A stretch of DNA of 64,000 nucleotides from the NCBI GenBank assembly GCA_004356805.1, contig SMXW01000045.1, positions 20,216 to 84,215 on the forward strand. Reading direction: 5' to 3'. Shown in pieces: positions 8,667-53,900 of this stretch (position 1 is the stretch's first letter; the number at the start of each line of letters is the position of its first letter). The notes under the pieces were generated by a model. It did not search any database and was not told where the DNA came from. It saw nothing but the letters and a program-made list of their open reading frames with translations. The DNA is from Acidobacteriota bacterium. Its GTDB lineage: Bacteria > Actinomycetota > Acidimicrobiia > Spongiisociales > ZC4RG35. Both the position numbers and the translations under genes were made by a program.

Positions 8667-8668
8667 AC

Positions 8669-10141: not shown

Positions 10142-10143
10142 CG

Positions 10144-15037: not shown

Positions 15038-15063
15038 CCGCCTTGTAACCAAAAGCGGTGTTG

Positions 15064-17039: not shown

Positions 17040-17040
17040 C

Positions 17041-17514: not shown

Positions 17515-17978
17515 CGCTTGATCTCCCCGGCCATGATCTTGTCGTGAAGAGTGAGAATGCCGTGCATCAGGCTTTGCGGGCCCGGCGGGCATCCGGGAAC
17601 GTAGATATCGACAGGGACGATCTGGTCCACTCCCTGAACCAGGGCATAGTTGTTGAACATTCCACCGGTCGATGCACAAGCCCCCATGGATATGACCCAT
17701 TTGGGATCGGGCATCTGGTCGTAAACCTGCCGAAGAACCGGAGCCATCTTCTGGCTGACCCGGCCGGCGACGATCATCAGGTCTGCCTGTCTCGGTGAGG
17801 CTCTGAACACCTCCATGCCAAAGCGGGCCAGGTCGTGGTGGGCGGCACCCGTGGCCATCATCTCGATGGCGCAACACGCCAGACCAAAGGTGGCCGGCCA
17901 CATCGACCGGGTTCGAGACCAGTTGGCAGCCTTCTCCACCGTGGTCATGAGAAGGTTCCCCAGTGGGGTTGTCGCCAC
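17511..17978 (-). CDS. nuoB: NADH-quinone oxidoreductase subunit B (4Fe-4S N2)
   Basis: CCAIEMM...[10 protein letters not shown]...CPP motifs. GTG start overlapping the nuoA TAG (cTAGTGg). Start moderately uncertain. Confidence 0.85.
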
Positions 17979-18385
17979 TAGGCAGCCTCGCTGGTCTCTT
18001 GCGAGACATAGCGGGCTCGACGCTTGACATTCCAGTCGAGGGCACCGCGCTTCCAGACGTACATCAGCGTCTCCATTACGAAAAACGTGAAGATGAGCAT
18101 CGCCGCCACGCCGTACCAACCCAGTGCGGTCCAGATGGACGCCCACGCAAAGAGGAAGATGATCTCCACATCGAAAATGACGAACAGCATTGCAACGAGA
18201 TAGAACTTCACGGGAAACCGCTGGATCGCTTCGACCTCAGGGACGATGCCGCACTCGTAAGGGTCGAGCTTTTCCGGAGTAGGGCGATCCGGACTCACCA
18301 TCTTCGACATGACGAGAGACACGAATACGAATAGGCCGGCCAACAGGAGCATTAGGCCGATGGGGAGATAGTCCGCCAAGGTCAC
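17978..18385 (-). CDS. nuoA: NADH-quinone oxidoreductase subunit A
   Basis: 135 aa, 3 TM. First gene of the operon. Confidence 0.85.
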
Positions 18386-24477: not shown

Positions 24478-25392
24478 CTAGGCCTCTTCGTCGCCGCTGG
24501 TGGCGCCGATGCAGCTCGGACCTTGGGGGTAGTTGACGGAGAGTGCAGGGGCACGCGAGGTCTGGATGACACTGCCCGTCTTGATGATGAATCGGCCGTC
24601 TCGGACTTCTACGACAAATCGGTCGAGATTTCGCGGCGCCGGACCGGCGAAGTACTCGCCGACCGAGTTGTACTTCGATCCGTGGCAGGGGCATTCAAAG
24701 CCTTGCGAAGGCGCGCACCAGGGAACCCGACATCCAAGGTGGACGCAACGCTGAAACAGCGCCATGAGCCCGTCGGTCTCGACCTGCTTTCCTGCGTACT
24801 GATCGGAGAGAGAGGTTGGTGCCGGCACCACGTAAGCCTTGGCCTCCGGTATGAAAAGGGGGAGAATCGAACCGGTCGGTGTGAAAACCGCACTCTTCAC
24901 CTCGGCCAGGGAGCCTGCATCGATATCGGACCCGAAGCCGCCGCTCAGTCTTGGCCAGAAGAACGCAAGGGAGTTGATTCCCATTATTCCCAGGAATGAG
25001 AAGAAGGTTACGTTCAGCGCCCGGTTGAAGAACTGACGACGGGTGACACCCGCCTCCTCTGGCGAAACCTCCACAACCCTTTGTGTCTCGACAACCTGGA
25101 TCGCCACCGGGGACGGCTCCGGCTCCGCGACCCCTACCTCGACCTCGACCTCGACCTCATCACCGGTCTCTTCACCGGTCTCTTCTATCACCGGAACGGG
25201 TATCGGTTCGACCCGCACCCCGACCATCGACTTGTCGGCCTTGAGGGTCTCCGATGACACGCCTGCGGTTGGATCGACCACGTCGGCCGACTCGTCCGAC
25301 TGCGAACGTCGGAAAGCGATGGTGAATGCTCCGACTGCGCCCAGAATGGCGAAAAGAGCCACACCAACCAGAACCAGGTTGCCAAAGCTCAC
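24478..25392 (-). CDS. Rieske [2Fe-2S] iron-sulfur protein of a cytochrome bc/b6f-type complex
   Basis: CVHLGC...CPCHGS Rieske boxes. N-terminal TM, then an acidic EV/EETG repeat linker, then an internal twin-arginine-like TRRQFF segment. Confidence 0.85.
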
Positions 25393-26354
25393 TCGAAGTC
25401 CACCCAGTCCTTGAGGTCATCGAAGAAGATCCCGTCCTTCCACGGGTAAGAGAAGTTGAAACCCCTTCCCCTGAACAGGACCCCGAGGATGGTGAGGGTC
25501 GCTGCACCCGAGATGAAAATCGAATAGAGAAGGATGGCGAACTTGCGGTCGCTGGGCCGTGTCGACGGGTTGCGGTCGACAAAGGGCACCATCATGAACC
25601 CGATGATTCCGACAATGGTGGGCACGGTCACTCCAGCGATCTGCGGGTCGAAATAGCTGAGAAGCTCCTGAAGCCCGAGGAAGTACCAGGGGGCCTTTGA
25701 CGGGTTTGGTGTTGCGTTGAAGTTGGCCGGATCGAGCAGAGGCGAGTGGATTACCACCGCCATTATCACCAGAAGCGCCGTAATGGCCAGGAGGGCACCG
25801 AATTCGACGAGCATCAGGTGCGGCCACGTGTTGACCTTGTCTTGGGGCTCCGGCTTCACGTCCTGAATCGCTCGGGCCTTGACGACAGTGAGAAGACGCT
25901 GAGTCCGGACACCGTCGGGGAGACCGGTGGGCGGGACCGACGGGCGGGGACTCACCAGGCCGGCAACCTTGGCGTTATCCGTGCCGTGGTCTTCGGCGGT
26001 TGGGGAATCCTCAGGTTTGTCTTCAACAGCTACTGGACCCCGTTCTTCAACCTCCGCCGCCGCAGATGGAAAGGCCTCGTCGTCCGACGACGGGGATGCA
26101 GCCACAACCTCTTCCACAACCTCCTCTGTCGACGGCGGTGCCTCTTCCACCGGATCGTCAACCTGCTCCGCGGGGGGCTCCGACCTGCTTTGCTCGTCCG
26201 GGAAGGGTGCTTCTTCGACGATCTCTGCCTGAGGAACCTCTACCGCCGGGCCCTCGCCCTTCATCTCAGCCAACACCTGTTCCACCGGCACCCCAAGTGC
26301 CTTGGCCTTCGCCTCCGCAGATCTCCTCAGGAGACTCTCTGGGATATCAACCAC
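25389..26354 (-). CDS. cytochrome b C-terminal half (b6f subunit IV-like) with long cytoplasmic N-terminal extension
   Basis: [12 protein letters not shown] (PEWY-type motif) and 3 TM. N-terminal 190 aa are acidic/Pro-rich and begin with the shared [14 protein letters not shown] module. Confidence 0.75.
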
Positions 26355-26363
26355 AAGAACTCC

Positions 26364-27140
26364 TCATAGGGGACCCGAAATGCCGCCGTCCTTGCGGACT
26401 CGCCAGAAGTGGATGGACATGAAAATGACGATGATGAACGGAAAGAAAAGAACGTGGAGGACGTAGAAGCGAAGCAGACCCGCCGCGCTCACCTCCACGT
26501 CGGCGAGGAGAACGAACTTGACCTGATCACCAACGACCGGAACGAATCCGGCCATGTTGGTTCCGACGGTGACCGCCCAAAGTGCCAGCTGATCCCACGG
26601 CAGGAGATAGCCCGAGAAGGAGAGCAACAGTGTCAGAAACAGGAGGACCACTCCGATCACCCAGTTGAACTCGCGTGGCGGCTTGTAGGCGCCGTGATAG
26701 AAGACACGACTCATGTGAAGAAACACCGAAAGGACCATGAGGTGCGCTCCCCATCGGTGCATGTTTCGCACCAGCGACCCGAACGCAATGTCAGTGGATA
26801 GCTCCTGGATGTTGACATACGCCAGCTCGGCGGTGGGCGTGTAATAGAACATCAGAAAGATGCCGGTGATTGTCAGGTGGATGAAAAGGAAGAAGCTGAG
26901 CCCACCGAGACAGAGCGTGTAGGACAGCTTGACCGCGTGCCTCTTCACCTTCACCGGGTGGAGGTGATAGAGAACGTTGTTCATCACGACATAGGAGCGG
27001 TTTCTCGGACTATCCGAGTAGCCCTGTTTGAAGGGCGAACCGGGACGAAGAATCGCACCGACCACCTGTGAGCTCCACAGCTTGTCGTTTGTCTCTTTGA
27101 TCCGGTCCCTGAGTCCGGTTTTGCCGTTGCGGTTAGCCAA
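26364..27140 (-). CDS. cytochrome b6-like (N-terminal half of cytochrome b, bis-heme)
   Basis: Conserved heme-ligand His pairs in helices B and D (RNMHRWGAHLM...LHMSRVFYHG; FYVLHVLFFPF). 258 aa, 4 TM. Confidence 0.85.
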   Translation of the reverse strand: MANRNGKTGLRDRIKETNDKLWSSQVVGAILRPGSPFKQGYSDSPRNRSYVVMNNVLYHLHPVKVKRHAVKLSYTLCLGGLSFFLFIHLTITGIFLMFYYTPTAELAYVNIQELSTDIAFGSLVRNMHRWGAHLMVLSVFLHMSRVFYHGAYKPPREFNWVIGVVLLFLTLLLSFSGYLLPWDQLALWAVTVGTNMAGFVPVVGDQVKFVLLADVEVSAAGLLRFYVLHVLFFPFIIVIFMSIHFWRVRKDGGISGPL

Positions 27141-27157
27141 TTAGTGCGCTCCCCTCG

Positions 27158-27607
27158 CTACCAACGCATACCGTACGAGTATCCGTTCTTGAAATCACGC
27201 TGACCGGTGTCGAAGTCCCACGGGCGGCGGTCGAGGCCCAACTCGGTCGCCTGGTCTGCAAGCGAGCCTTCGAACTTGCCCAAAGAGATGACGTTGGTCG
27301 GACACCGGTCGATGCACAACGCGCATCGGGTGCACTCATCCTCATCGACGATGAAAAAGCCGAAGTTCTGGTCATCCTCGGCCGGATGGTCGACGTTGAC
27401 TCCTTCGGTGATTGCATCCAGAGACAGGTAGTGAATGCACTTCCAGGGACAGATATCGACGCAGCCTTCGCAAAGGATGCATTCCACCTGGTCGATGTGG
27501 AGGAACTGCTTGGAACGCAGCTTGTCCTTGAAATAGTCACCTTCGACCAGAGCAAGCTGATAGTCATCCCTGATCGGCGGGATCTCGTCGATGACTCCAC
27601 GGGGCAT
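27158..27607 (-). CDS. 2x[4Fe-4S] ferredoxin-type protein co-operonic with the Rieske/cyt b genes
   Basis: CILCEGCVDICP and CTRCALCIDRCP. Start MPRGVIDE overlaps the stop of the upstream membrane gene (ATGA). The upstream 123 codons of the ORF call overlap that gene out of frame. Confidence 0.7.
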   Translation of the reverse strand: MPRGVIDEIPPIRDDYQLALVEGDYFKDKLRSKQFLHIDQVECILCEGCVDICPWKCIHYLSLDAITEGVNVDHPAEDDQNFGFFIVDEDECTRCALCIDRCPTNVISLGKFEGSLADQATELGLDRRPWDFDTGQRDFKNGYSYGMRW

Positions 27608-28239
27608 CAGGCGTCTCCCTTGACCAAAGGACGCCCATATGGCGACTTCCGCTCGGACGGTTGGGCACCTGGTGGACGACCTTCCTTGATCTTCTGAATC
27701 TGAATCCCCAGAACCGCCCCGAACCCAAGCAGCACGATGTGATAACCCATCGAGATCGAGTCCTTGAGGACCGCGTAACTGATCTCGATGGTGTTGCCGA
27801 GGACGAGGGCCGGTGGGATGACGAGCGCCACTCTTTGCGACGACCAATCGAGTTCGGTCTGGGCGAAGGTGAGCCACTCTGAGGGGGCTATCCCAAAGAA
27901 GAAGAGGAGAGCGAGCCAGGTGATCATTGCCGCGACCGTGGCGCGAGCCCAGGTCATCCTCTGATTCAGAACCCAAAGAAAAGTAGCTCCGACGAGAGCG
28001 AATGTAGTGGCACCCAGAATGATCAGATAGCCGATTCCCAGCCAGACGGTGCCTCGCGGAAACCAGTTGAGGTAATCGACGGTCACCACAACATCAACGC
28101 CATCGATGAGCTCCGTCTCCGGAAAGCTCGACCAGTGGATCCAGACGACCCCGACCACCAGTCCAAGGACACCGAGAAGAAGCAATCCAGATCCGATTGC
28201 TTGGCGGCGTCTGTCGCTTAATTCTCCGAGGCGATACAT
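27607..28239 (-). CDS. membrane protein (about 5 TM), first gene of the Rieske/cyt b operon
   Basis: 210 aa, hydrophobic, no motif. Translationally coupled to the ferredoxin gene. Confidence 0.5.
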   Translation of the reverse strand: MYRLGELSDRRRQAIGSGLLLLGVLGLVVGVVWIHWSSFPETELIDGVDVVVTVDYLNWFPRGTVWLGIGYLIILGATTFALVGATFLWVLNQRMTWARATVAAMITWLALLFFFGIAPSEWLTFAQTELDWSSQRVALVIPPALVLGNTIEISYAVLKDSISMGYHIVLLGFGAVLGIQIQKIKEGRPPGAQPSERKSPYGRPLVKGDA

Positions 28240-28408
28240 GGTCAGGTGCAGTCCGGACGTGTGTAGCTGGTTGTTGGGGCGTTTCTACCACAAGCAGGGC
28301 CCTCTTAGATAACCCAACCTGTGGCACTAACTGGGGTCAATGTAGCGGCGTCGTGATTTGTGGAAGTAGTTATGCTCCCGCCCGTCTCATTTCCGACGAG
28401 GAAGACGC

Positions 28409-29845
28409 TTGGCTGATACCCCAAACTCGGACAATCGAACACTTCACGTTGTGGGAGAAGACGACAGTCGCGTCGCCGCAAATCATCTCGTAACCGGTGC
28501 CTTCTTTCTCGTGCTCGGTGGGGGTCTCCAGTTGCTCTCCCTGATGTCACTCCGTTTCGCCGACATTTTTCCCATTACTTACGGGCGTCTCGAGCCCATG
28601 GCCAACCTCACCCTGATGATCGGGTTCGTCTCCATTTCGCTGATCGGAGGCATCTACTACGTCCTTCCTCGGCTCACCGGGGCAAGGTTGAGTGTCAGCA
28701 GCCTCGCCAGGTTTGAATTGTTCGGAATCGCCGGTCTGGTGCTGGTTGGTTTGCTGGCGATCGGATTCGGGTTCGGCACAGGTGGTCAGCCGTTCGGTCT
28801 TCCGTGGTGGATCAATCTGCCGATGACCCTTCTGCTCGCCGTTCCGGCGCTGGTCACCATTGGAACCATCTCGGACCGCAGCGAGAACCGAAGCTACGTG
28901 ACTCTTTGGTTTGTCCTCGGTGGAGTAATTTGGCTGCCCCTCCTCTACCTGGCCTTCTCCTCGGGCGACCTCCCATATCTCTCATCAACTGCTGTCGCCT
29001 ACACCGACGTGTTCTTCTCCGCCGGCTTCGTCACGATGTTTCTCTTTACGGTCGGAACGGGGCTCTTCTATTACACGATGGTCAGGGAGCTCGATGTCTC
29101 CCTCGCTAGTCGCCAACTTGCCCTCGTCGGGTTTTGGTCGCTGGGATTCGCCGCGGTCTGGTGGGGAACTGCCCAACTCATGTTCGGGCCCGGACCTTCG
29201 TATCTTTCCGGTGTAGGGGCTGCCCTCGGTCTCGCGTTCCCAATCGGAGCACTGGCAAACGCAGCAAACGCATCGCTGACCCTCGAGGGCGCCTGGGACA
29301 AGGTCCGAGACAGGCCCGACCTGAGAGCCGGTGTCCTCGGTCTCTATCTCGGGGTTGGGGTGGCAGTGATGGCAGCACTTGCCGGTTTCCGGTCGATCGC
29401 ATCGGTAGCGGCGTTGACAGGCTTCTGGCAGGCCATCGAATATGCCGCCATCTCAGGGGTTGGCACTCTGCTCATCGCCAGCGTGAGCTTCTCAGCCGTC
29501 CCTCGTCTGTTTGGCAGGGAGCTTTACACGAGGAGAACGAAGACCTTCTTGACCCTGACACTCACCGGATCAGTCGGGGTTCTCGTCTTCATGGCCGCCT
29601 CCGGTCTTGTCTCGGGCTACTCATGGATCGGCGGCTCCAATTCTGGTGCCTATGTCGACGTCGGAGAAGGTTGGGGCGCCGGTTTGGGAGGGAGCGTCGA
29701 AACAATGATGTTGATCGCTGTCGGGTTCGCCATCGTCACCTTCTTCGGCCAGCTCGCCTACGCGGCCACCATCATCGGAACCGTCACGCAGGGAAAGGCC
29801 GCCACACAGGAGGTTCTTGTAGCAAAGGCCACTGTCGATGAGTGA
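28409..29845 (+). CDS. 12-TM membrane protein with heme-copper-oxidase subunit-I-like helix pattern but lacking the canonical His ligands
   Basis: 478 aa and 12 predicted helices. N-terminal ANHLVTGAFFLVLGGGLQLL and YYVLPRLTG segments resemble COX1 helices I-II and PRLN loop. Only 2 His in the whole protein. Homology is an inference. Confidence 0.5.
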   Translation: MADTPNSDNRTLHVVGEDDSRVAANHLVTGAFFLVLGGGLQLLSLMSLRFADIFPITYGRLEPMANLTLMIGFVSISLIGGIYYVLPRLTGARLSVSSLARFELFGIAGLVLVGLLAIGFGFGTGGQPFGLPWWINLPMTLLLAVPALVTIGTISDRSENRSYVTLWFVLGGVIWLPLLYLAFSSGDLPYLSSTAVAYTDVFFSAGFVTMFLFTVGTGLFYYTMVRELDVSLASRQLALVGFWSLGFAAVWWGTAQLMFGPGPSYLSGVGAALGLAFPIGALANAANASLTLEGAWDKVRDRPDLRAGVLGLYLGVGVAVMAALAGFRSIASVAALTGFWQAIEYAAISGVGTLLIASVSFSAVPRLFGRELYTRRTKTFLTLTLTGSVGVLVFMAASGLVSGYSWIGGSNSGAYVDVGEGWGAGLGGSVETMMLIAVGFAIVTFFGQLAYAATIIGTVTQGKAATQEVLVAKATVDE

Positions 29846-30590
29846 CCTTCTGGCTGCAACCTCCACCACACTCGGGGTGCCGGAGGACCTGGTGCGTCGT
29901 TCGGCCGAGGCTCGCGCCGCCGAGGCCGGCTCGAATGTCGATGAAATTCTGACCGCGTGGGGTGGAGGCGAGGCCATAGTCGTCACATCCTCTGCCGCAC
30001 CGGAACCACCTCCCTCTGTCGAAGTGAGCTCCGAGCCACCGGCTCAGCAAGAAGATGTCGCCCCTGACATCGTGATTGAGACTCCGCCGGCTCAAACCGC
30101 CCCCATGGCCACTGCTCCCCCAGGCACTTACCAGCCACCTGTCCTTGTTGGGGCGCCGGACAAACCTGGAATGATCATCCTCGGTGCGATCGGGCTGTTT
30201 CTGGTCGTCCTCATGATGGGGCTGATTGGCCCTTCGGTTGCCACAGACGAGCCTGGTTCCCGCACCAGCGAGATCCCGTACTCACAGACAGCAGTCAATG
30301 GTCAACGTGTCTATGCGTCTCTCGGATGTGCCGCCTGTCATACCCAGATGGTGCGCCCGGTCGTCGCGGATGTCGGGCTTGGGGCCGTGACCTTGAATGA
30401 CACCAATCAAGTGGTGGGAGATCGACGATTCGGGCCGGACCTCTCTGATGTGGGGACACGGATGACATCGAGTCAGTTGGAGGCGACGGTCACTGGGGAT
30501 ACCACGAAGCACCCGCCGCACAACCTGGCTCCAAAAGATATGACCGCCCTGGTTGCGTACCTTTTGGAATCAAGGAATTCGGAAGGATAG
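29838..30590 (+). CDS. membrane-anchored monoheme c-type cytochrome
   Basis: CAACH heme motif. Central TM anchor. N-terminal module LGVPEDLVRRSAEARAAEAG shared with two other proteins. Confidence 0.7.
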   Translation: MSDLLAATSTTLGVPEDLVRRSAEARAAEAGSNVDEILTAWGGGEAIVVTSSAAPEPPPSVEVSSEPPAQQEDVAPDIVIETPPAQTAPMATAPPGTYQPPVLVGAPDKPGMIILGAIGLFLVVLMMGLIGPSVATDEPGSRTSEIPYSQTAVNGQRVYASLGCAACHTQMVRPVVADVGLGAVTLNDTNQVVGDRRFGPDLSDVGTRMTSSQLEATVTGDTTKHPPHNLAPKDMTALVAYLLESRNSEG

Positions 30591-30592
30591 GG

Positions 30593-31621
30593 ATGAGCGA
30601 ATTCATCGCGACTGCCGCGGCCGCCCTGGGAATACCTGAGGATCTGGTGCAACGCTCAGCTGAGGCGAGGGCGGCCGAGACTGGAGGGTCGGTCGATGAT
30701 GTTCTGGCGGCGTGGGCCGGAGGGGGCGTGGTGGCGGCAACAACGCCCGCATCCGAACCGGCGGAAGTGACCGTTCCCGAAGAAGAGGATTCCCAGCCGG
30801 AGCCGGTTGCAGCGGCCCCGGCTGCTGTCGTGGTCGAGACTCCGACTGCGATGCCTCAGCCCACAACGAGAGCCCCGGTGCCCACCGAAGTGACACCGGG
30901 TGAGGCAGCGCACCTCCCGGAGGTGATAACCGTGCCAACCGCCGGCATCAGGGAGCAGACGAGCTTCGTCATTCCCAAGTGGCTGACGGCTGTGTTTCTC
31001 ATCGTCCCGCTGTTCGCCTTGTTTGCGCTCGGTGGTGCCTCCACCGGTGAGTGCGGCGAGGCGACCGAGTTGATGACGGACGTTGTGACCGGGAACATCG
31101 TCAATTGTGATGGGTCCGAATTCACCGGTCAGTCTGTCGGCGGGGGCGGAATCGACTACATCGCTCTGGGTGGGAGCATCTATGCGGGGGGCGCAGTAAC
31201 GGGTGTCAATTGCGCCGGGTGCCATGGGGTCAACGGTCAGGGGTCAGCCACCTTCCCGGCACTAAGCGGAGCGCTCACCACATTTGGGGCCTGCGTCGAC
31301 CACATCGTGTGGGTGGGACTTGGGTCCTCGGGATTCCAGTCAGCAGGGGAGAGCAGCTACGGCGACACCTCAAAGCCGATCGCCGGCGGTATGCCCTCAT
31401 TCAGCAGCAATCTGACCGAGGAACAGATCACGGCGGTTTCCGCTTTCGAGCGTGTCCGATTTGGCGGTGGCGACCCGGACGAGGTTCTGATCGACTGCGG
31501 TCTCGCCGAGTCCCCGGACGACGGGGAACAGGGCACGGGAGACGGTGGAGATGACTCCACGGAGAGTGACTCCACGGAGAGTGACGAAGAGACCGAGGCC
31601 TCGGTCCGTCACCTCGGCTAA
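30593..31621 (+). CDS. membrane-anchored monoheme c-type cytochrome (tandem paralog)
   Basis: CAGCHG heme motif. TM anchor. N-terminal LGIPEDLVQRSAEARAAETG module. Acidic C-terminal tail. Confidence 0.7.
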   Translation: MSEFIATAAAALGIPEDLVQRSAEARAAETGGSVDDVLAAWAGGGVVAATTPASEPAEVTVPEEEDSQPEPVAAAPAAVVVETPTAMPQPTTRAPVPTEVTPGEAAHLPEVITVPTAGIREQTSFVIPKWLTAVFLIVPLFALFALGGASTGECGEATELMTDVVTGNIVNCDGSEFTGQSVGGGGIDYIALGGSIYAGGAVTGVNCAGCHGVNGQGSATFPALSGALTTFGACVDHIVWVGLGSSGFQSAGESSYGDTSKPIAGGMPSFSSNLTEEQITAVSAFERVRFGGGDPDEVLIDCGLAESPDDGEQGTGDGGDDSTESDSTESDEETEASVRHLG

Positions 31622-32168: not shown

Positions 32169-32993
32169 TCATTCAGCTTTGGGTGCTCTTCTCCCCGCCA
32201 GGGTGACTGACATGCCTTCGGCAAGGTTGAGGGCCTCGACCGCACGACCACCCCGAACGGCCAACGCGACCAAACCCGAGGAGTCGACGTGGAGCATTGG
32301 CTCACCGTCCTCAACATCGGAGTAGGACGTAACCCATTTGACCGAGTGCAGGGTTGACCCGATTTTCACGGTGACGGCTTCACCCGGGCTGATCCCGACA
32401 GCATCGAGGTCTTCGGGAGAAACATTCGTCTGCACGTTGCCATAACCGTCGATCCACCAAGCTTCTCCGGCGACTGTCGAATTGACGATTTCTGTGAGAG
32501 GAAGGAGCATCGGCGTGATCTCATCGCCGGCCAACGTGGGTCCAAGATCCTCGAGGGCGGCGTTTCCTGAAGCCAGAAGTGCCGCAGCCGGTGCAAACAC
32601 ATCTCTCCCGTGGAATGTCTCTCCGGGTGAGGGGATCATCGCCTCTGGGCTCTCAATCGAAACGATCTGAGAGGCGCCCCCGACCATGGCAACACCCGGC
32701 GAGAGAAGTCCGTTGTCGGGGCCCACGAAGAAGCCCCAGGGTGTTTTGGCCGCGATCGCCCTGCGATCGGAGCCGACACCGGGATCGACCACAGCTAGAC
32801 ATACCCCCTCCGGCAGATATTGAATGGCTCGGGTCAGAGAAAGCGCACCAGCTCTTACGTTTCCTCTGGGGATCTCGTGTGCGATATCGATGACCGATGA
32901 CTCCGGGGCAAGCTTTGCCAGCACACCGTGAACCACTCCCACGAACTCGTCGTGATAGCCAAAGTCGGAGAGAAAACTGATCGGAAGGGACAT
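32169..32993 (-). CDS. SAM hydroxide adenosyltransferase family protein (DUF62; fluorinase/chlorinase-like fold)
   Basis: ISFLSDFGYHDEFVGVVHGV N-terminal signature. Start set at MSLPISF. The upstream 52 codons of the ORF call are Arg-rich run-in. Confidence 0.7.
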   Translation of the reverse strand: MSLPISFLSDFGYHDEFVGVVHGVLAKLAPESSVIDIAHEIPRGNVRAGALSLTRAIQYLPEGVCLAVVDPGVGSDRRAIAAKTPWGFFVGPDNGLLSPGVAMVGGASQIVSIESPEAMIPSPGETFHGRDVFAPAAALLASGNAALEDLGPTLAGDEITPMLLPLTEIVNSTVAGEAWWIDGYGNVQTNVSPEDLDAVGISPGEAVTVKIGSTLHSVKWVTSYSDVEDGEPMLHVDSSGLVALAVRGGRAVEALNLAEGMSVTLAGRRAPKAE

Positions 32994-33187
32994 CGCTGGC
33001 GACGGTAGTGGCCTGTAGCACAAATGGTGTGAGTGTGTCTCCGAGACATCGACGTTCGATTCGCAAGGAGGCACAACCAAGCTGCATCCGCTCGTGCGGC
33101 AAGGCAGAGGACGCCGCAGGCGACGTCGAGGGCCGGAGAGACGCCGCAATCACTCGTAAGTGGGACCAAACCTGGTGTGTCGTGGAA

Positions 33188-34102
33188 ATGACGTCCGCGT
33201 ACCGGCCCTATATTGCCGGAATGACCGAATTCTCATATGACGACCTGGCCCAGGACGTCGCAACAAGCAACGTCTCGATGCTGATCGGAGGCCTGGACAC
33301 CGGCAAGACGACCCTCGCTCTCCAGGCCGTGCGTCTAGCGCTTGCTTCCGGGCGGACACCCGTCATCGTCGATGCCGACGTTGGGAACTCGACCATCGGT
33401 CCACCAGCGTGTGTAGGGATGAAAGTATTCAACTCGCTGGATGACCTCGAAAAACTCGACCAGCCCGACGGACTCCACTTCGTCGGCACCGTGACGCCGT
33501 CACGGTTGGTCCTCCAGCACGTCGTCGCCACGGCTGTGATGGTCGAAAGGGCAAAGCAGGTCGGAGATGTCGTGATCATCGATACGACGGCGGTGGCGTC
33601 AGGTGTGTCCGGTGAGACTCTCAAGTACCACAAGTCGGAGCTCTGTCGACCCGAAAAAATCATCGCCCTTCAGCATGGGGAGGAGATGGAGCCCGTTGTC
33701 GGCATGCTGCGACGGTTTCTCGGCATAGAAGTGATCACCGCACCTACCGACCCGGCTCTCCTTCCGATGACACCCGACGGACGAGCTCGCAAACGCGCGG
33801 ACGGCTTCGCGGCAGCACTCCAGCCGCCTCTGGACCGATGGAAAGTGCGCCCAACCGTTTTCGCTCCGACCGTCCCGGTCGGCCTCAATCTTGGGAGGCT
33901 CGAGGGTGTCCTCGTGGGTGTCCAGGGCTCGGGAGGCGGTTGTCTGGGGCTTGGTGTCCTGGACCATGACGACGGCATACTGCGGGTGATGACCAATGTC
34001 GGTGAAGGCATGACCGGGCTCCGGCTCGGTTCTATGCGCCTCGACACCAGCACATACGCATCGACGATGGTCAGCCTTCGCGAGGTCATGTTCGGCGTGT
34101 AG
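33188..34102 (+). CDS. Clp1/Grc3-like P-loop polynucleotide kinase domain protein
   Basis: Walker A GGLDTGKTTL followed by the VIVDADVGNSTIGPP (DxDxGQ-like) clasp typical of the Clp1_P family. Start uncertain (33188 or 33221). Confidence 0.5.
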   Translation: MTSAYRPYIAGMTEFSYDDLAQDVATSNVSMLIGGLDTGKTTLALQAVRLALASGRTPVIVDADVGNSTIGPPACVGMKVFNSLDDLEKLDQPDGLHFVGTVTPSRLVLQHVVATAVMVERAKQVGDVVIIDTTAVASGVSGETLKYHKSELCRPEKIIALQHGEEMEPVVGMLRRFLGIEVITAPTDPALLPMTPDGRARKRADGFAAALQPPLDRWKVRPTVFAPTVPVGLNLGRLEGVLVGVQGSGGGCLGLGVLDHDDGILRVMTNVGEGMTGLRLGSMRLDTSTYASTMVSLREVMFGV

Positions 34103-46026: not shown

Positions 46027-46680
46027 TCATTTGATCAACACGATGTGAACATGTTTGGGTCCGTGAACTCCAAGGGTGAGTTGCTGCTCTATGTCGCCGG
46101 TGCGACTGGGCCCGGTAATCACCACCAGATTTGCGGTGTTTGCAACGCTTTCCGGGAATTTGTGGGCCCAATGGACCAGGGTTCGCTCCATCAAAATCAG
46201 ATCCAGGAGGGCCACATGGACCTCGGGCACGAGGCTGGCCATTCTCGGTCTTCCCGGTCGATGTTCGAGCACGACACTGCCACTCTCGGCGAGACCGGCT
46301 GTGGCTCCGGTGACGCCCAGATCCAGGTCGCGATACCCCAACTGATGCTCCATCCTGGTCTCGACAGGCACCTCCCCTTCCACCCTTGTCAGACCCGCCG
46401 CGGTGAGAGCCGAAGCCACACCGGAGGCAGGAAGATCCTCCCATGCCATGAAGGATCTGCATTGATGCCCTGCGGCGATCCCGGCCACAGCTCTAGGCAC
46501 CCCGTGTCGTCCGACCGGCCCATGAACCACGGCGTCCACGTCCTGGGCCCGTTCCCGGAACAGTGTCTGAAGATCTTCATCTTCCAAGTCGGGCAAGCGG
46601 TCGGGGATACCCAACACCTCCGGCAGGACGGCGGTCATAGCCGACCGTCCGACTCTGGCGAGAAAGACATCACGATCCAC
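46027..46680 (-). CDS. lutC: lactate utilization protein C (LUD domain, YkgG-like)
   Basis: LUD-domain pattern. Follows lutB. Start approximate (GTG 46680 or ATG 46638). Confidence 0.65.
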   Translation of the reverse strand: MDRDVFLARVGRSAMTAVLPEVLGIPDRLPDLEDEDLQTLFRERAQDVDAVVHGPVGRHGVPRAVAGIAAGHQCRSFMAWEDLPASGVASALTAAGLTRVEGEVPVETRMEHQLGYRDLDLGVTGATAGLAESGSVVLEHRPGRPRMASLVPEVHVALLDLILMERTLVHWAHKFPESVANTANLVVITGPSRTGDIEQQLTLGVHGPKHVHIVLIK

Positions 46681-48070
46681 GGTTGGTCCTCCACCATTCA
46701 GCGAACGACTCCGAGGCGGGACGTGGCAAGTCACGAAATTTCGTCCACCCTCTCCCCGGACCTGGGATCCGGCGCAGCCAGCCACCTGACGCCAAGGGGG
46801 CGCTCAGACGCGAAGCCCACTTCGTCGCCCTCCGCCATTTCTGAGGGTCCGTCGTCGTTCGGGCGTATCGGCTCATGCCTTTGTTGAGCCAACCCGGCAG
46901 TCTGCCCTCAGAAGCGGCACGTTCCCTCAGCTGGAGAAGCATCGAAGGGATTTGGATACGTATCGGGCACACTTCCTCACAGGCTCCGCACATGGTTGAT
47001 GCGTAAGGCAACTCCCACCAGGGTTCCATTCCGTGCAAGCCGGGAGTGACAATCGAACCGACTGGTCCCGAGTACACGGTGCCGTAGGCGTGACCTCCGA
47101 CGGTCTGAAAGATGGGGCAGACATTGAGACAGGCGCCACATCGGATACAGGCCAGGATCTCCGCGGTGGGACCGCCCAAGATCTCTGAGCGACCGTTGTC
47201 TATGACGACGACGTGTGACTCTTCGGGGCCGTCGGGATCGCCCTCCCTCCTCGGGCCGGTGATGACGCTGGTGTAAACGGAAAGCCTCTGCCCGGTGGCA
47301 GAGCGGGCTAGAACCTCCAGCACAACGGTGGCGTCCTCCCAGCTCGAGACGATCCTCTCCATGCCCATCAGAGCGATGTGAACTCTCGGAGCCGTCGTGG
47401 TCAGCCGGCCGTTTCCCTCGTTGGTGACCAGGACGACCGACCCTGTCTCGGCGATGGCCATGTTCACGCCGGAGATACCCGCGTCCGCACTGAGAAAGAT
47501 CTCCCTGAGATGGGCTCTGGCGATCTCGTTGAGCTCTGTCGGATCGTCGGTGTACTCGACACTCAGCTTCTCGGAGAACAGTTCACCGATGTCCTGGCGG
47601 GTCATGTGGAGTACGGGAGCGATGATGTGACTGGGCGTGTCGCCGGCAAGTTGCACGATGAACTCCCCGAGATCGGTCTCGACCACCTCCAGACCGACGC
47701 CTTCGAGGTGGTGGTTGAGCTCGATCTCCTCGGAGACCATCGACTTCGACTTCACCACGAGACTGGAGTCCGACTGTTGGAGGATTTCGGCCACGATCCG
47801 ATTCGCCTCGTCGGCATCGGCTGCGAAGTGCACTGTGCCGCCAAGAGCGGTGACCTGATCTGCGAATTGACCTAGAAGCCGGTCGAGATGACTGAGGGAG
47901 TGAAGACGGATCGCCCGCGCCCTATCGCGCAATTCCTCCATGATGGGGAACTCGGCCACGACGCGATCTCTTGCGTCATTGAAGTGCCGTATCCCCTTGA
48001 CGACCGCAGCGGCCTCTTTACTGCCGAGGAGGGCGTCGGCGCGAGTGACGAAGCTGACCGGCTGGCTCAT
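46670..48070 (-). CDS. lutB: lactate utilization protein B (4Fe-4S ferredoxin-type, YkgF-like)
   Basis: CIRCGACLNVCP and CGACEEVCP motifs plus the DUF3390-like C-terminus. Confidence 0.85.
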   Translation of the reverse strand: MSQPVSFVTRADALLGSKEAAAVVKGIRHFNDARDRVVAEFPIMEELRDRARAIRLHSLSHLDRLLGQFADQVTALGGTVHFAADADEANRIVAEILQQSDSSLVVKSKSMVSEEIELNHHLEGVGLEVVETDLGEFIVQLAGDTPSHIIAPVLHMTRQDIGELFSEKLSVEYTDDPTELNEIARAHLREIFLSADAGISGVNMAIAETGSVVLVTNEGNGRLTTTAPRVHIALMGMERIVSSWEDATVVLEVLARSATGQRLSVYTSVITGPRREGDPDGPEESHVVVIDNGRSEILGGPTAEILACIRCGACLNVCPIFQTVGGHAYGTVYSGPVGSIVTPGLHGMEPWWELPYASTMCGACEEVCPIRIQIPSMLLQLRERAASEGRLPGWLNKGMSRYARTTTDPQKWRRATKWASRLSAPLASGGWLRRIPGPGRGWTKFRDLPRPASESFAEWWRTNRGS

Positions 48071-48792
48071 ATGTCACTGCCTGCCAATAGCTCAGCAATA
48101 TGCTTGACCACCACTTTGGATCCTCTACGTCGAAGACCTCCCTCCAGGTGCATCAGACATGAGACATCGCCCGCCACGAGTGTGTCGGCGCCGGACGCCT
48201 CAACCCGATCGAGCTTCTCATCCATGATTGCAGCGGAGATGGCCGGCATCTCGATCGAGAAGAGACCCCCAAAACCACAGCATTCCTTGTCACCGTCGAG
48301 GTTCACACGGTCGACCCCCTCCAGCAATCGGTCAGCCTGGGCTTCCAACCCGAGCCCTCGCAGACCATGACATGAGTAGTGATAGGCGACCGAACATCCG
48401 TCACATGAGGCGGATGCGTCAACACCGAGATCGTCAATGAGAAACTGAGTGAGTTCGCGGGTCCGACCCGCCACCCGGTCTGCCTGATCGGCTCGATCGG
48501 TTCCTTCGAAAAGCTCGATGTAGTGGTGGGCAATCATCTGGGTACACGATCCGGACGGGACCACGATCGGACCCTCCGTGACGTCGAGGACATCAAGGGT
48601 GTGAGCAGCCATTTCTCGCGCCTGATCGGTGAGACCGACATTGAAAGCAGGCTGTCCGCAGCAGGTTTGACCCTCGGGAAAGTCCACCCGGCAACCCGAA
48701 TTCTCGAGAACCGCCAGGGTGGCACGACCCACCTGGGGTGCTAATACATCAACCAGGCAGGTGACAACAAGCTGGACTTGCGGCCATTCCAT
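48067..48792 (-). CDS. lutA: lactate utilization protein A (CCG-domain Fe-S oxidoreductase, YkgE-like)
   Basis: Two cysteine-rich CCG domains (CCGQPAF...; CCGFGG). Confidence 0.8.
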   Translation of the reverse strand: MEWPQVQLVVTCLVDVLAPQVGRATLAVLENSGCRVDFPEGQTCCGQPAFNVGLTDQAREMAAHTLDVLDVTEGPIVVPSGSCTQMIAHHYIELFEGTDRADQADRVAGRTRELTQFLIDDLGVDASASCDGCSVAYHYSCHGLRGLGLEAQADRLLEGVDRVNLDGDKECCGFGGLFSIEMPAISAAIMDEKLDRVEASGADTLVAGDVSCLMHLEGGLRRRGSKVVVKHIAELLAGSDI

Positions 48793-48804: not shown

Positions 48805-49479
48805 TTACGCCTTGCGCTCGTTCACGGCCTTCAATGCCTCCAGATACCGCTCCACCATCGCCACATAGGCCTTGGTCCCATCCTTGAAGTCGTCACTGAT
48901 GTCCCGATATCGGCGCCGCAATGCGAGGGCGGCGAACTTGGCCCCGCTGAGGTAGTACTCGAGGCCCGCGCCCGGGATCGCCGTCTTCCCCGGCTCGACC
49001 GGGCCATGCTCAACCGCCAGCTGCGAGGTCGGATCGAGACCCAAGGCCCCGAGCTCTTCGAGAACCAGATCCTCATCGGGTCTGTCGGCGTAGTCCTTGC
49101 CGACAAACCGGAACACAATCTCCCCGTCGGGCGAGATGATCACGACACCCGGCCGCGATATCAGTCTCGGATCGTTCTCGTCGGCGAACCTCAGCGGAGT
49201 TATTGCCTGATCCCTTTCAACATCGGAAAGGATCGGGAAAGGGAGGGCCAGCTTTTCCATCACAGCAGCGTTCTGACCGGGCGAGTCGGCGCTCAGTCCG
49301 AACACTCTGGCGCCTCGCTCCAGAAATTCACCCTGTCGCTGGGCCATGACGGCCAACTGGCCGTGGCAGTACGTTCAGAAGTCGCCCCGGTGAAAGGTGA
49401 TCACGGCCGCGGCGTCGAGATGATCGGACAGCGTCCACGGTTTGCCGGCGGCGTCCAAGACTGTGAAGTCGATTGCCAA
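48805..49479 (-). CDS. candidate selenoprotein: redoxin-like thioredoxin-fold protein (AhpC/TSA_2 / PRXL2-SelU-like) with in-frame UGA in a UxxC motif
   Basis: The 183-aa annotated ORF (GEFLERGARVFGLSADSP...) lacks the redox-active N-terminus. Reading through the in-frame TGA at 49377..49375 gives ...TLSDHLDAAAVITFHRGDF-U-TYCHGQLAVMAQRQGEF..., placing the TGA at the first Cys of the FxRxxGCxxC redox motif. A stem-loop (ACGGCC-AGUU-GGCCGU, extendable) starts 3 nt after the UGA, at the SECIS position. The start codon (TTG 49479) is tentative. Confidence 0.5.
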
Positions 49480-49668
49480 CTTGCTTCCCTCCTCGGGTAT
49501 GAGTCCCCATTGTTAGCGTGCTCGGACTCATGTTCATTCCCGCCGTCGAAGGATCGCCATGACCGAACTTCTGCTTCCCAACCTGAGGCCCTGGCCAAGT
49601 GTGGACCGATCGGCGAGATCCATGGTGATCCGCAGAGGGAGAGGCGTGGCTCGAGAAGGTGCCCTCGT

Positions 49669-50319
49669 TTGACCGCCTCCCGCTGGTTCATCCCGTTTGG
49701 CGGCCGTGAACTTCCCAGACGTCTGGTGAACCTTGTTGTCGGCCTCGTCATCTTCGGGGCGGGCATCGGATTGATGCTCCAGTCCGGTCTTGGTGTCCCG
49801 CCCTGGGATGTACTTCATCAGGGGCTCGCTGTTCGATTCGGCCTCACCGTTGGGGTCTGGTCGATCATCATCTCGTTCGTAGTCCTCCTGTTCTGGATTC
49901 CGCTGAGGGAGCCCTACGGGATTGGAACCGTTCTCAATGCATTGATCATCGGGGTGATGATCGATGTGACAGCCGTTGTGGTGCCCGAAGCCGGAAACAC
50001 CGTGGTGGCGATTCTCATGCTCGGGTCCGGGATTCTGTCGATCGGCTTCGCGTCCGGCCTCTACATCGGGGCCAATCTCGGGCCCGGCCCCCGTGACGGG
50101 CTGATGACCGGAATCGCCCGGAAGGGCCCGTCGATCCGTTTGACCAGGTCGATACTCGAGATCGTGGTGCTGATCGCTGGATGGCTGCTCGGTGGCACAT
50201 TCGGGATCGGAACCATCGCCTTTGCCCTGCTGATCGGACCGTTGGTTCAGTTTTTTCTGCCTCGCTGGACTATCGACGCGGGTCGTCGGGTCGACGGTTG
50301 GGAACACCCTGCTCGCTGA
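49669..50319 (+). CDS. YczE/YitT-like membrane protein
   Basis: GLGVPPWDVLHQG motif and 5-6 TM. TTG start at 49669 (a GTG at 49726 is the alternative). The ORF-track 513-aa call is a chimera with antisense sequence. Confidence 0.55.
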   Translation: MTASRWFIPFGGRELPRRLVNLVVGLVIFGAGIGLMLQSGLGVPPWDVLHQGLAVRFGLTVGVWSIIISFVVLLFWIPLREPYGIGTVLNALIIGVMIDVTAVVVPEAGNTVVAILMLGSGILSIGFASGLYIGANLGPGPRDGLMTGIARKGPSIRLTRSILEIVVLIAGWLLGGTFGIGTIAFALLIGPLVQFFLPRWTIDAGRRVDGWEHPAR

Positions 50320-50785
50320 GCCTAGGTTCCCCGGACATCGACTTTCGGCCTGGAGACAAGGTTGGCTAAAAGGGAGTCCCGGACTGACGATGAGCAACCG
50401 GAGAGGGGCCCTCGGGCTTCGCCGTCAGGTTTGTCCCATGGAACGACCCGATTGGTTCGTCGAGGACCCGATGTTGCACGGACCGGAGAAGAGGAAGTGG
50501 GGAGCATTCTCACCTACCGCCGCACCTACATCCTCCGTCACGCCGGTCATTCCTGGCAGGGACGATGTCGGCCGGAGGCGTCGTTCATGATCCGCTACTG
50601 GTGGGACAACTTGGTTTGAGGACGAAACCCGCGAAAACTGATCAGCCACCCGACTAGCTGAACCCGTGGCACCCATATATGGTGCCGTCACTTCCCCAGA
50701 GCACCCGTTTCGGCGTCCGCTTCCCCGCCTGGATGGCCGTTTTGGCTGTCTGAGCACGCACTACGGGCTGTGGATAACTCGGTTC

Positions 50786-50874
50786 TTGACGAGTTGCAGG
50801 CTTGTAATTACAGTGTTGGAGTCCATACCAGATGTAGGTGGACACTTCCCCGCACACCACAACATCTAGTGGTG
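50786..50874 (+). promoter_or_regulatory. candidate nrdJ promoter with NrdR-box-like palindromes
   Basis: TTGACG (50786-50791), an 18-nt spacer, then TACAGT (50810-50815). The perfect palindrome TGTAATTACA (50803-50812) overlaps the -10. An inverted repeat CACCAC-N8-GTGGTG sits at 50855-50874, and the palindrome GCACCCATATATGGTGC at 50669-50685. Confidence 0.3.
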
Positions 50875-50943
50875 GGAGCTATAGATGGACGTGTTCTCGG
50901 TCTTCGGTGCCGAAACAAGAGAAGTGCGGAGGAGGCACAACAG

Positions 50944-53900
50944 ATGAGCGAAGGCCTACGGATAACCCGTCGCTTTACCGAGGCCGGTAACGACCCATAC
51001 GACCGACTGGAGTGGTCGACTCGTGACTCCAGAATCACCAACCCCGACGGCTCTGTTGTCTTTGAGATGACCGACGCCGAGATCCCGTCTCAGTGGAGCC
51101 AGGTCGCCTTGGACATCATGGTGTCCAAGTACTTTCGCAAGGCCGGAGTCCCCCAGTACGACGAGGACGGAACCCAACTCTTCGACGACGAAGGCCGACC
51201 GCTGACCGGTCCGGAGCACTCCGCCAAACAGGTCTTCAATCGTCTCGTCGGCACATGGCGGCACTGGGGGGAGAAGGGGGGCTACTTCGCCACCGCTGAT
51301 GATGCCGAGGCCTTCGAGGACGAGCTTCGCTACATGCTCGCCAACCAGATGGCCGCTCCCAACTCACCACAATGGTTCAACACCGGACTCAACTGGGCCT
51401 ACGGGCTCACCGGCCCACCCCAAGGACTGTGGTACGTCGATGACGAGACCGAGGAACTCATATCTTCCCCTGACTCCTACAGCAGACCCACTCCTCATGC
51501 CTGCTACATACTCAGCGTCAGCGATGACCTGGTCAACCCGGGTGGAATCATGGACCTGTGGGTGCGGGAGGCTCGCATCTTCAAGTTCGGTTCCGGCGCC
51601 GGATCCAACTTCTCCTCCATCCGAGGCGAGAACGAACTGCTCTCTGGTGGTGGCAAATCCTCCGGGGTCATGTCCTTCCTCAAGATCGGGGACCGCGCCG
51701 CCGGCGCGATCAAGTCGGGTGGCACCACCCGTCGCGCAGCCAAGATGGTCATTCTCGATGTCGACCATCCCGACATCGAGAAGTTCATCGACTGGAAGAA
51801 GGTCGAGGAAGAGAAGGCCAAGCTGCTCATCGACCACGGTGGCTTCCCGGCCGATTTCAATGGTGAGGCTTATGCCACTGTCTCGGGGCAGAACTCCAAC
51901 AACTCGGTCCGCATCAGCAACGACTTCGTCAAGGCCGTGGAGCAAGACGATAACTGGGACCTGATCAATCGAACCGACGGTTCGGTCCGCAAGACGATCA
52001 AGGCACGCGATCTCTGGTCTCGCATAGCCGACGCTGCCTGGGCCTGTGCGGACCCTGGTCTCCAGTTCGACTCCACGATCAACGAGTGGCACACCAGTCC
52101 TGCCGGTGGTCGCATACGGGCTTCTAACCCATGCGCGGAATATCTCTTTCTGGACGACACCGCCTGCAACCTGGCGTCGCTCAATCTCGTCAGGTTCTAC
52201 GACGACGAGAGCGGCGAGTTCGACATCGAGGCCTACAAACACACTATCCGCATCTGGACCATCGTCCTGGAGATCTCCGTGGCGATGGCTCACTTCCCGT
52301 CAAAGGAAATTGCACAAGGCTCCTACGACTATCGGACTCTTGGGCTTGGCTACGCCAACCTCGGGTCGCTGCTGATGCGTCAGGGCATCGCTTATGACTC
52401 CGATGAGGGCCGGGCCATCGCCGGCGCAATGACCGCCATCCTCACCGGGCACTCCTACGCAACATCGGCCGAGATGGCGGGGGTTGTGGGACCGTTCCCG
52501 CGCTTTGAGGAGAATCGGGAGGCGATGCTCCGGGTCATCCGTAACCATCGTGCGGCTGCCTATGACGGCGACGACTTCGACGGTGTCACCACCAGGGTGA
52601 TGGGCATCGATGCAGAACTGTGCCCGGACGATCTGGTGACCGCCGCCCGCGAGTCATGGGATCTCGCTCTCGAGCGTGGTGAGGAAACCGGCTATCGCAA
52701 CGCACAGTCCAGTTGCCTCGCGCCTACCGGAACAATCGGGCTTCTAATGGATTGTGACACCACCGGTGTCGAGCCCGACTTTGCCCTGGTCAAGTTTAAG
52801 AAGTTGGCCGGTGGCGGTTACTTCAAGATCGTCAACCAGTCCGTGGCGCCGGCACTGGCCAGCCTCGGCTACAACCTCGACCAGATCAACGATGTGGTGC
52901 AGTACATCGCTGGGACCAACTCCATGGAGGGTGCCCCACACATCAACGAACTGACGTTGGCCGAGAAAGGCTTCGACAGCGACGACCTTGCCAAGCTCGA
53001 GGAAACCCTTCCCAGAGTCTTTGATTTGAAGCACGCGTTCAACGTCTTCACCTTTGGCGAAGCAACCTTGCAGCGGCTCGGGTTCGGTGTCGACGAATAC
53101 ACCTCGTGGAACTTCGACCTACTTCAGGCGCTCGGATTCACCAAAGAGCAGATCGCAGGAGCCAACGACCATATCTGTGGTCGCCAGACCATAGAAGACG
53201 CTCCCTACATCCGGGACGAGCATCTCAAGGTGTTTGACACTGCCAACAAGAACGGGAAATACGGACGGCGGTTCATTCACCACAACGGCCACATCAAGAT
53301 GATGGCGGCGGCTCAGCCGTTCATCTCGGGTGCGATCTCGAAGACGATCAACATGCCCAACGAGGTCGACACCGAAACCATCGAGGAGGCATACCACCTC
53401 TCGTGGGAGTGGGGTCTCAAGGCCATGGCTCTCTACCGGGACGGATCAAAGGCGGTGCAGCCCCTCAACTCCACCGCCGACGAAGGTGAGAAAAGCGAAG
53501 AGGAGGCCGTCGGGATCACTGCTGCCGTCGAGCAGGAGAAGGCGATCCACTGGGGGAATCTCCCAGCTGGGACTTCGCCAAGCCAGGCATACGCCCAGGG
53601 AATGCCGCCGCCTCGGTTCCTGCTCCCGGCCCGTCGTCCCGGGTATCTCCAAGAAGCCCGAGTGGGAGGCCACAAGGTCTATCTGCGTACCGGTGAGTAC
53701 AACGACGGAACCCTGGGGGAGATCTTCATCGATCTGGCCAAAGAAGGCGCAACGCTGAAAGGCATCCTCAGTTGTTTCGCCATCGCAGTTTCCAAGGGTC
53801 TCCAGTACGGAGTGCCGTTGGAGGAGTTCGTCGACACTTTCACGTTCCAAACCTTCGAGCCCCGGGGAATCGTCGAAGGTCACGAGAACATCAAGATGGC

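Follow-up and report, generated by a model that had tools for sequence, protein, structure and literature searches.

The DNA analysed here, referred to as the window, is a stretch of 64,000 nucleotides (nt) from the Acidobacteriota bacterium assembly GCA_004356805.1, placed by GTDB in the Acidimicrobiia (contig SMXW01000045.1, positions 20,216 to 84,215). On its minus strand, next to the lutABC genes, lies a conventional open reading frame (ORF) of 183 amino acids for a redoxin, 48805..49356, with a TTG start. An earlier note made from the letters of the window drew attention to a single in-frame TGA upstream of this ORF, at 49377..49375, and took it to be a codon for selenocysteine (Sec) at the first position of a CxxC-type motif, with a selenocysteine insertion sequence (SECIS) hairpin downstream, rather than a truncating mutation. 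The ORF, the lone TGA and the surrounding frame, ..KPWTLSDHLDAAAVITFHRGDF-TGA-TYCHGQLAVMAQRQGEF.., were all found on reading the minus strand, and the comparisons described below support this reading of the TGA. With read-through the product is MAIDFTVLDAAGKPWTLSDHLDAAAVITFHRGDF-U-TYCHGQLAVMAQ...NERKA, 224 residues with U35 and C38 in the motif RGDF-U-TYC. It is concluded that the gene very probably encodes a genuine selenoprotein in which UGA codon 35 is read as selenocysteine. The features of the locus are collected in Table 1.

Table 1. Features of the redoxin gene, its surroundings and the related loci discussed in the text. Positions are those of the window except where a related locus (L) is named.
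Feature	Position	Strand	Remarks
Candidate selenoprotein gene, complete	48805..49479	minus	224 codons, then TAA stop
Start codon TTG	49477..49479	minus	ATG, GTG or TTG at the same position in relatives
Ribosome-binding site GAGGAGG	49488..49494	minus	8 nt before the TTG start; read from sequence
In-frame TGA, inferred Sec codon (residue 35)	49375..49377	minus	first position of the U-x-x-C redox motif
TGC codon, Cys38, second (resolving) residue of UxxC	49366..49368	minus	invariant Cys, TGC or TGT in relatives
Thioredoxin/peroxiredoxin-fold domain, residues 1 to ~135	49075..49479	minus	
C-terminal helical hairpin extension, residues ~170-224	48808..48972	minus	without Pfam family; kept in Sec and Cys forms
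Candidate bacterial SECIS hairpin ACGGCC-AGUU-GGCCGU	49349..49364	minus	6 base pairs, 16 nt; starts 10 nt after UGA
Apical loop AGUU	49358..49355	minus	16 nt after UGA
Conserved upstream motif ACGCTAACAATGG	49507..49519	minus	~30 nt before the start codon; kept in ~25 diverse loci
lutA, two CCG cysteine-rich domains	48067..48792	minus	PF02754, 4.1e-28; starts 12 nt after the redoxin stop
lutB, LUD domain, 4Fe-4S dicluster and LutB_C	46670..48070	minus	Pfam matches, conserved order
lutC, LUD domain	46027..46785	minus	true start probably downstream of the ORF's first start codon
Divergent membrane-protein gene	49660..50319, start approximate	plus	weak YitT-like PF02588, E = 0.004, below cutoff
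Distant TGA-bearing genes	L078:1190-1861; L079:2250-2922 (same gene in L080); L081:1550-2233		
Inserts in L055	3890-5350 and 6099-6932		aldehyde dehydrogenase (PF00171, 1e-153); glyoxalase-fold and AHSA1/SRPBCC gene

Upstream of the TGA the frame is open for 34 codons back to the TTG at 49479..49477, which sits 12 codons after the next in-frame stop, a TAA. The first residues, M/L/V-A-I-D-F-T, are kept across related loci, and alignment of the upstream regions showed a purine-rich block of GGAG type before the start in most of them. Protein profile searches were run with Cys in place of the stop. The N-terminal extension completes a redoxin domain: residues 2-123 are assigned to Pfam AhpC-TSA (PF00578) with 78.2 bits (cutoff 26; E = 6.8e-22). 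The read-through product also matches Pfam Redoxin (PF08534).

The DNA of related loci was collected, 8 from GTDB genomes, mostly metagenome-assembled genomes (MAGs) of Acidimicrobiia or Actinomycetota, and 60 from metagenomes. Among the 62 loci matched from residue 1 onward, 61 have TGA as the aligned codon. In the remaining one, L066, there is an N and the frame is lost ahead of the site, i.e. all 61 informative loci, which come from independent assemblies, carry TGA, and the check on orthologues proposed in the earlier note gave neither TGC nor TGT. The 44 distinct full-length sequences have pairwise identities down to 48% for protein and 58% for nucleotides, and no further internal stop and no frameshift was seen in any of them. 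Codons 2-34 have entropies of 0.38, 0.29 and 1.10 bits at codon positions 1, 2 and 3, which is the three-base periodicity of coding sequence; the values for the comparison region, codons 45-135 in the rest of the redoxin domain, are 0.57, 0.39 and 1.33 bits. Coding constraint is present on both sides of the TGA and, as judged from these alignments, the 34 codons upstream of it are under protein-level purifying selection. A genome-wide reassignment of TGA was rejected, since TGA is the commonest stop in the window and terminates 27 of its 44 genes, which indicates that the genetic code is not reassigned.

It might be argued that the TGA is a real stop, the gene being a pseudogene or a truncation whose functional product, if any, is the ORF of 180-183 residues. 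The public records look this way. The best 120 database relatives (58-98% identity) are all annotated at ~180 residues and begin just after the TGA position, with the active site missing, under the names 'redoxin domain-containing protein' or 'hypothetical protein' (e.g. MCH7581211.1, TDI56083.1 and JGI 'hypothetical protein' entries), and the downstream ORF has possible TTG and ATG starts of its own. However, a uniform annotation at 180 residues is what gene callers output for any Sec gene, and the truncated product would be without three strands and the entire active-site motif. Truncation also does not account for a TGA kept in every informative locus down to 48% identity with no other stops or frameshifts, nor for purifying selection on 34 upstream codons that have their own start codon and ribosome-binding site. 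We regard it as extremely unlikely.

Support for selenocysteine also came from distant full-length relatives, which were found by exhaustive profile search and then aligned. All 12 of these homologues (30-40% identity) have a Cys exactly at the TGA column, in RGDW-C-xx-C-NGQL, and have the redoxin domain as well as the C-terminal extension. The redoxin and these homologues form a Sec/Cys pair and, as the earlier note proposed, the TGA fills the position of the family's first Cys. Three more distant sub-families carry a TGA at the first-Cys position, RGDW-U-PYC, and their annotated forms look truncated. Their neighbours differ from those in the window: PspA and proline dehydrogenase/pyrroline-5-carboxylate reductase, or an alpha/beta hydrolase. 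The TGA in these three further sub-families implies that Sec use in the redoxin family is broader than the lutABC-linked clade.

The intact Cys homologues bear as well on a split gene, in which a 34-residue peptide and a 180-residue protein would be made separately by re-initiation after the TGA and would fold jointly, the hairpin described below serving for coupling or re-initiation. Possible starts do lie within 30 nt after the TGA (TTG 49356 and ATG 49347), and one gene caller gave a 35-residue upstream piece as a separate ORF in L078. The break would fall, however, on the catalytic residue, the one that is Cys in the intact homologues, so that the protein would lose its nucleophile. Nor are the starts after the TGA conserved, several loci having T, I or L in place of M45, and no ribosome-binding site precedes them. 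A split gene is hardly credible on these grounds.

The sequence downstream of the TGA is constrained at the nucleotide level. Positions +15 to +27 counted from the U of UGA (GGCCAGTTGGCCG) are invariant among 48 distinct sequences bar one GCT, and this single exception retains a G-U pair. Only 6 of the 93 degenerate codon columns with a conserved amino acid are without synonymous variation, and these are three two-fold Phe codons and the consecutive codons 40-42 (GGC CAG TTG). The adjoining codons 43 (GCC) and 44 (GTC) are fixed at 98% and 93%. The other Gly, Leu and Ala columns use 3-6 codons, and the other Leu columns are mostly CTC or CTG. The hairpin proposed in the earlier note is thus conserved beyond the need of the protein sequence, as the absence of any synonymous variation at codons 40-42 shows, and the weight of the evidence is comparative: it lies in the TGA of 61 out of 61 loci together with a lack of synonymous variation confined to the hairpin codons.

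The stem-loop ACGGCC-AGUU-GGCCGU exists as the note gave it, and this apical part, which starts 10 nt after the UGA, is the only one conserved. The outer pairing that the note added appears when the window sequence is folded, starting at 1-3 nt from the UGA, but relatives have not retained it. An extended lower stem, being broken in several relatives, was rejected as part of the element. The RNAalifold consensus is the 6-base-pair hairpin. The 16-nt hairpin alone gave -10.0 kcal/mol (z = -3.9, with 1 in 200 shuffles as good) and the 42-nt fold -16.8 kcal/mol; a 61-nt fold was unremarkable on its own (z = -0.65). The published bacterial SECIS model calls for a loop of 3-9 nt on an upper stem of 4-16 base pairs, a G at loop position 1 or 2 with G or U as the usual next base, a UGA-to-loop distance of 16-37 nt and a minimum free energy of -7.5 kcal/mol or lower (PMC13188914). 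The hairpin fits all four rules, with its 4-nt loop and 6-base-pair stem, G-U at loop positions 2-3, a distance of 16 nt, which is the minimum that the model allows, and -10.0 kcal/mol. Like the fdhF SECIS of E. coli and the bacterial consensus, it is a stem-loop within the coding sequence after the UGA with a small apical loop containing G-U at a fixed distance; it differs from them in being much smaller and, in the main clade, in having no bulged U.

Of the Cys homologues, four were available with DNA. At the matching codons these have GGG, GGC or TGC, then CAG, then CTC or CTG, and the hairpin is absent. The distant TGA-bearing sub-families (L078, L079 and L081) have other hairpins in the same place, GCCAGCU-GGUC-AGC(u/a)UGGC and GCCAGUC-CGUGC-GGCUGGC. 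The loops of these hairpins, GGUC or CGUGC, lie 20 nt after the UGA, and their folding energies range from -8.9 to -10.6 kcal/mol. These observations can be set against the suggestion that the invariant GGCCAGTTGGCC is a site acting at the DNA level, protein-binding or restriction-related, and unconnected with decoding. It is an inverted repeat that occurs once in the window, and one match is not unusual by chance (0.41 expected). It is found, however, only in TGA-bearing genes and with the spacing from the UGA demanded by the SECIS model, and the other sub-families substitute different hairpins rather than the same sequence. A role unconnected with decoding is therefore exceedingly improbable.

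For selenocysteine decoding, a mechanism can be proposed by analogy with the fdhF SECIS of E. coli. UGA codon 35 of the redoxin mRNA would be decoded as selenocysteine, the stem-loop 10 nt after it, with G-U in its 4-nt loop, recruiting SelB carrying Sec-tRNA(Sec) to the ribosome. In the product Sec35 would act as the attacking nucleophile and Cys38 would resolve, with formation of a selenenylsulfide. A crude scan of the window for other cases of an in-frame TGA with a hairpin gave 11 candidates and no second convincing selenoprotein gene. Apart from 49377, the candidates were rejected as alternative frames or the opposite strand of known genes, or as a gene junction.

The assignment of the protein to PRXL2/SelU in the earlier note was not upheld. 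There is no match to AhpC-TSA_2 (PF13911), the matching family being AhpC-TSA (PF00578). The best NCBIfam match is 'SelL-related redox protein' NF040769 over residues 2-90 (51 bits against a cutoff of 120, E = 1.3e-13), and PrxU NF040737 scored 24.9 bits against a cutoff of 270. An AlphaFold model of a Cys homologue, P0172, has a predicted local distance difference test score of 96.5. In this very confident model a thioredoxin/peroxiredoxin fold precedes a pair of long helices at the C-terminus (170-190 and 192-216), and residue 37, the first Cys of the motif, stands immediately before the first long helix (38-49). The nearest structures are BcpB, AhpE and ResA, and the C-terminal helix pair is covered by no PDB match. 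This extension has conserved Y-x-x-G-A-K-F-A..ALR.R and RY motifs.

Comparison of the active sites, F-y-P-x-D-F-T-x-x-C in peroxiredoxins and F-H-R-G-D-F-U-T-Y-C in the family, suggests from the motif spacing that Sec occupies the Thr position of TxxC and Cys38 the position of the peroxidatic Cys, which is how CxxC redoxins are known to relate to TxxC peroxiredoxins. The peroxiredoxin pattern PxxxTxxC is not present, Thr being replaced by Sec or Cys and Pro being absent four residues before it (R-G-D-F-U). A candidate for the catalytic Arg, residue 109, which is equivalent as far as sequence can tell, gives way to K or L in several members and is not kept among the Cys homologues. Given that Sec replaces the Thr of TxxC and the first Cys of the CxxC relatives, the most likely chemistry would be that of a thiol-disulfide (selenenylsulfide) oxidoreductase; since the Pro is absent and Arg 109 is not conserved, classical peroxiredoxin activity appears less likely.

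Several known groups resemble this protein. PRXL2/SelU proteins (PF13911) are also thioredoxin-fold redoxins with CxxC or UxxC, and some animal members are selenoproteins. SelL proper is eukaryotic and has UxxU; it shares with the redoxin a peroxiredoxin-like fold and Sec in a CxxC-type motif, but the redoxin scores far under the NF040769 cutoff and the match omits the C-terminal extension. The Sec peroxiredoxins (Prx TxxU; PrxU, NF040737) belong to the same fold superfamily and Pfam family, but have Sec at the peroxidatic position, the last of TxxU, whereas here Sec replaces the Thr and the peroxidatic position stays Cys. Structures of BCP/PrxQ, AhpE and ResA/TlpA are only 16-26% identical, are without the C-terminal helical pair, and none is a selenoprotein. 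Selenoproteins of PF00578 with UxxC are themselves an established predicted family, 'Prx-like thiol:disulfide oxidoreductase' or 'Prx-like 1', first found in Geobacter and then in hundreds of copies in the Sargasso Sea and Global Ocean Sampling (GOS) metagenomes (PMC1088965, PMC2398784, PMC13188914). The redoxin has both features that define this family, the AhpC-TSA domain and UxxC in place of TxxC/TxxU, and the two are alike in their Sec/Cys pairs with many Cys homologues and in a small SECIS hairpin just after the UGA; the comparison is with the published description of the family. The sub-family here differs in the extra C-terminal helical hairpin of ~55 residues, in the motif RGD[FW]-U-x-Y-C-x-G-Q-L, in its occurrence in Acidimicrobiia-type genomes and in heading a lutABC operon. 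The sub-family with this helical pair and motif, its universal mis-annotation as a truncated protein and its conserved place at the head of the lutABC operon appear to be undescribed.

The note had the gene directly following lutABC. This has to be reversed, as in the direction of transcription the redoxin precedes lutABC as the first cistron. The order membrane-protein gene, redoxin, lutA, lutB, lutC is kept in nearly all loci and the distance from the redoxin stop to the lutA start is ~12-16 nt across them, and we infer that the redoxin is co-transcribed as the first cistron of a conserved redoxin-lutA-lutB-lutC operon of Acidimicrobiia-type genomes. Given this place in the operon, it probably has a redox task connected with LutABC, the lactate-oxidising iron-sulfur complex. 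A full-text literature search for LutABC together with selenocysteine returned nothing relevant. The distant Sec sub-families do not adjoin lutABC, most of their contigs being short.

In a sub-clade of five loci (L050, L053, L055, L056 and L063) there is extra DNA between the redoxin gene and lutA, and lutA and lutB are also split by extra DNA where the contig reaches far enough. The inserts of L055 hint that the operon may handle lactaldehyde- or methylglyoxal-type substrates besides lactate. In the shared upstream region, a strict sigma-70 promoter scan ahead of the redoxin called nothing; the conserved motif ACGCTAACAATGG may possibly be the -10 region or an operator of the operon. A further sequence, GGGAATGAACATG (49541..49529, minus strand), is the reverse complement of ATGTTCATTCCC, which encodes M-F-I-P. 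The M-F-I-P site is the start of the divergent membrane-protein gene in most related loci. The window's clade has only a 10-codon remnant there, MFIPAVEGSP followed by a stop, and the membrane-protein gene seemingly begins ~150 nt further on (..WFIPFGG..). The remnant, with the segments 49507-49541 and ~49660-49700, suggests that the shared promoter region was duplicated or rearranged locally; the ACGCTAACAATGG motif beside it is conserved in all clades.

Some results weigh against the interpretation given here. Neither the 64-kb window, nor 10 kb of flank on either side, nor the loci collected yielded selA, selB, selD or tRNA-Sec; the sel genes were looked for with a Pfam scan of ~50 window ORFs and of the genes called in the flanks, the tRNA with ARAGORN on the window and 59 loci. 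Covariation in the hairpin is minimal, with one compensatory change of A-U to G-C in two sequences and one G-U wobble, and an Rfam scan of the whole window at gathering thresholds gave no hits. The proposed functional link to LutABC is drawn from gene order, and lutABC is not beside the four Cys homologues checked, 3 of the 4 contigs being shorter than 2 kb.

Some of these points can be accounted for. Covariation is minimal because the hairpin is invariant within the main clade, and support for pairing comes instead from the synonymous-site invariance and from the different hairpins in the same place in sister sub-families. The Rfam result is expected, since bacterial SECIS elements are not modelled in Rfam. 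The sel genes need not be linked to the redoxin, so their apparent absence from the window, flanks and loci is absence of evidence only. In Actinomarinales, another order of Acidimicrobiia, complete Sec machinery and about five selenoproteins per genome have been reported (bioRxiv 10.64898/2026.04.03.716425). That report indicates that the Sec trait exists in the class; it is no proof for the source organism.

As no Sec machinery was found in the DNA covered, it might also be argued that the UGA is read with another amino acid, either Cys, through a Cys-charged tRNA with a UCA anticodon and a SelB-like factor, or Trp or Cys through near-cognate suppression that the hairpin would promote. A few bacteria have been described in which Sec sites with SECIS-like elements are naturally recoded to Cys. 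Insertion of Cys through a TGA and a costly hairpin would, however, bring no gain over a one-step change to TGC or TGT, and the clade contains no orthologue that has taken this step. The hairpin agrees with the SECIS model of the SelB type (PMC13188914), and the position is typical of Sec in thioredoxin-fold selenoproteins (PMC1088965, PMC2398784). Decoding as another amino acid is accordingly thought unlikely, and selenocysteine remains the strongly preferred reading.

A number of other observations were made in the window and the related loci. Locus L002 (CAXMMT010000007.1) is titled 'uncultured Boseongicola sp.', an alphaproteobacterium, and MCH7581211.1 and TDI56083.1, which are 98% identical to the window protein, are labelled 'Acidobacteria bacterium', while the closest genomes in GTDB are MAGs of Acidimicrobiia/Actinomycetota. 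These conflicting labels are likely due to contaminated bins or to mislabelling. Beyond the membrane-protein gene there are ~600 nt without obvious gene (50320-50944; Rfam null at gathering thresholds) before nrdJ, the class II ribonucleotide reductase ORF, which opens at GTG 50770 with a called product of 1122 residues rather than 1180. A respiratory cluster at 22783-31621 contains a split cytochrome b (N-terminal part 26364-27140, C-terminal part 25389-26354), a Rieske protein and a multi-haem cytochrome c of 564 residues, and on the other strand a distant COX1-like protein (PF00115, only 1e-19) accompanied by subunits of the FixO-like and cytochrome c kinds; an unusual enzyme of the haem-copper oxidase or nitric oxide reductase type may be encoded here. 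A full nuo (complex I) operon lies at 3785-18045, and part of a second, shorter nuo-like set (nuoA, B, C, D, H, I and J families) was seen at L082:1-4415, in the 10 kb beyond the left end of the window. At 32169-34102 two genes on opposite strands overlap, one for S-adenosylmethionine hydroxide adenosyltransferase (PF01887/PF20257) and the other, which is overlapped at its start, for a Clp1-type P-loop polynucleotide-kinase-like protein (PF16575, 5e-23), a family uncommon in bacteria.

The finding overturns nothing in present understanding, as selenoproteins of the Prx-like UxxC kind have been on record from metagenomes since 2004-2008. Selenocysteine use in Acidimicrobiia has only just been noticed, and no NCBIfam model captures the redoxin family. 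A full-length profile would correct hundreds of records, and Acidimicrobiia-type genomes would gain a selenoprotein family. As a compact and well-defined SECIS candidate, the invariant 16-nt hairpin could serve in searching these genomes for more genes of selenoproteins. Finally, the strict position before lutABC is a lead on the partners of the poorly understood LutABC iron-sulfur complex. LutA has CCG domains of the HdrB type, which heterodisulfide reductase uses to reduce a disulfide, so that LutABC could conceivably pass electrons to the redoxin. It is a speculative and rather doubtful idea that the selenoprotein would serve LutABC as its dedicated partner in redox reactions, with electrons from lactate passing to the Sec-Cys selenenylsulfide in a lactate-driven thiol/selenol reducing system. 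If it were true, the redoxin would be the physiological electron acceptor of LutABC, and the system could serve, for example, in defence against peroxide or reactive aldehydes.

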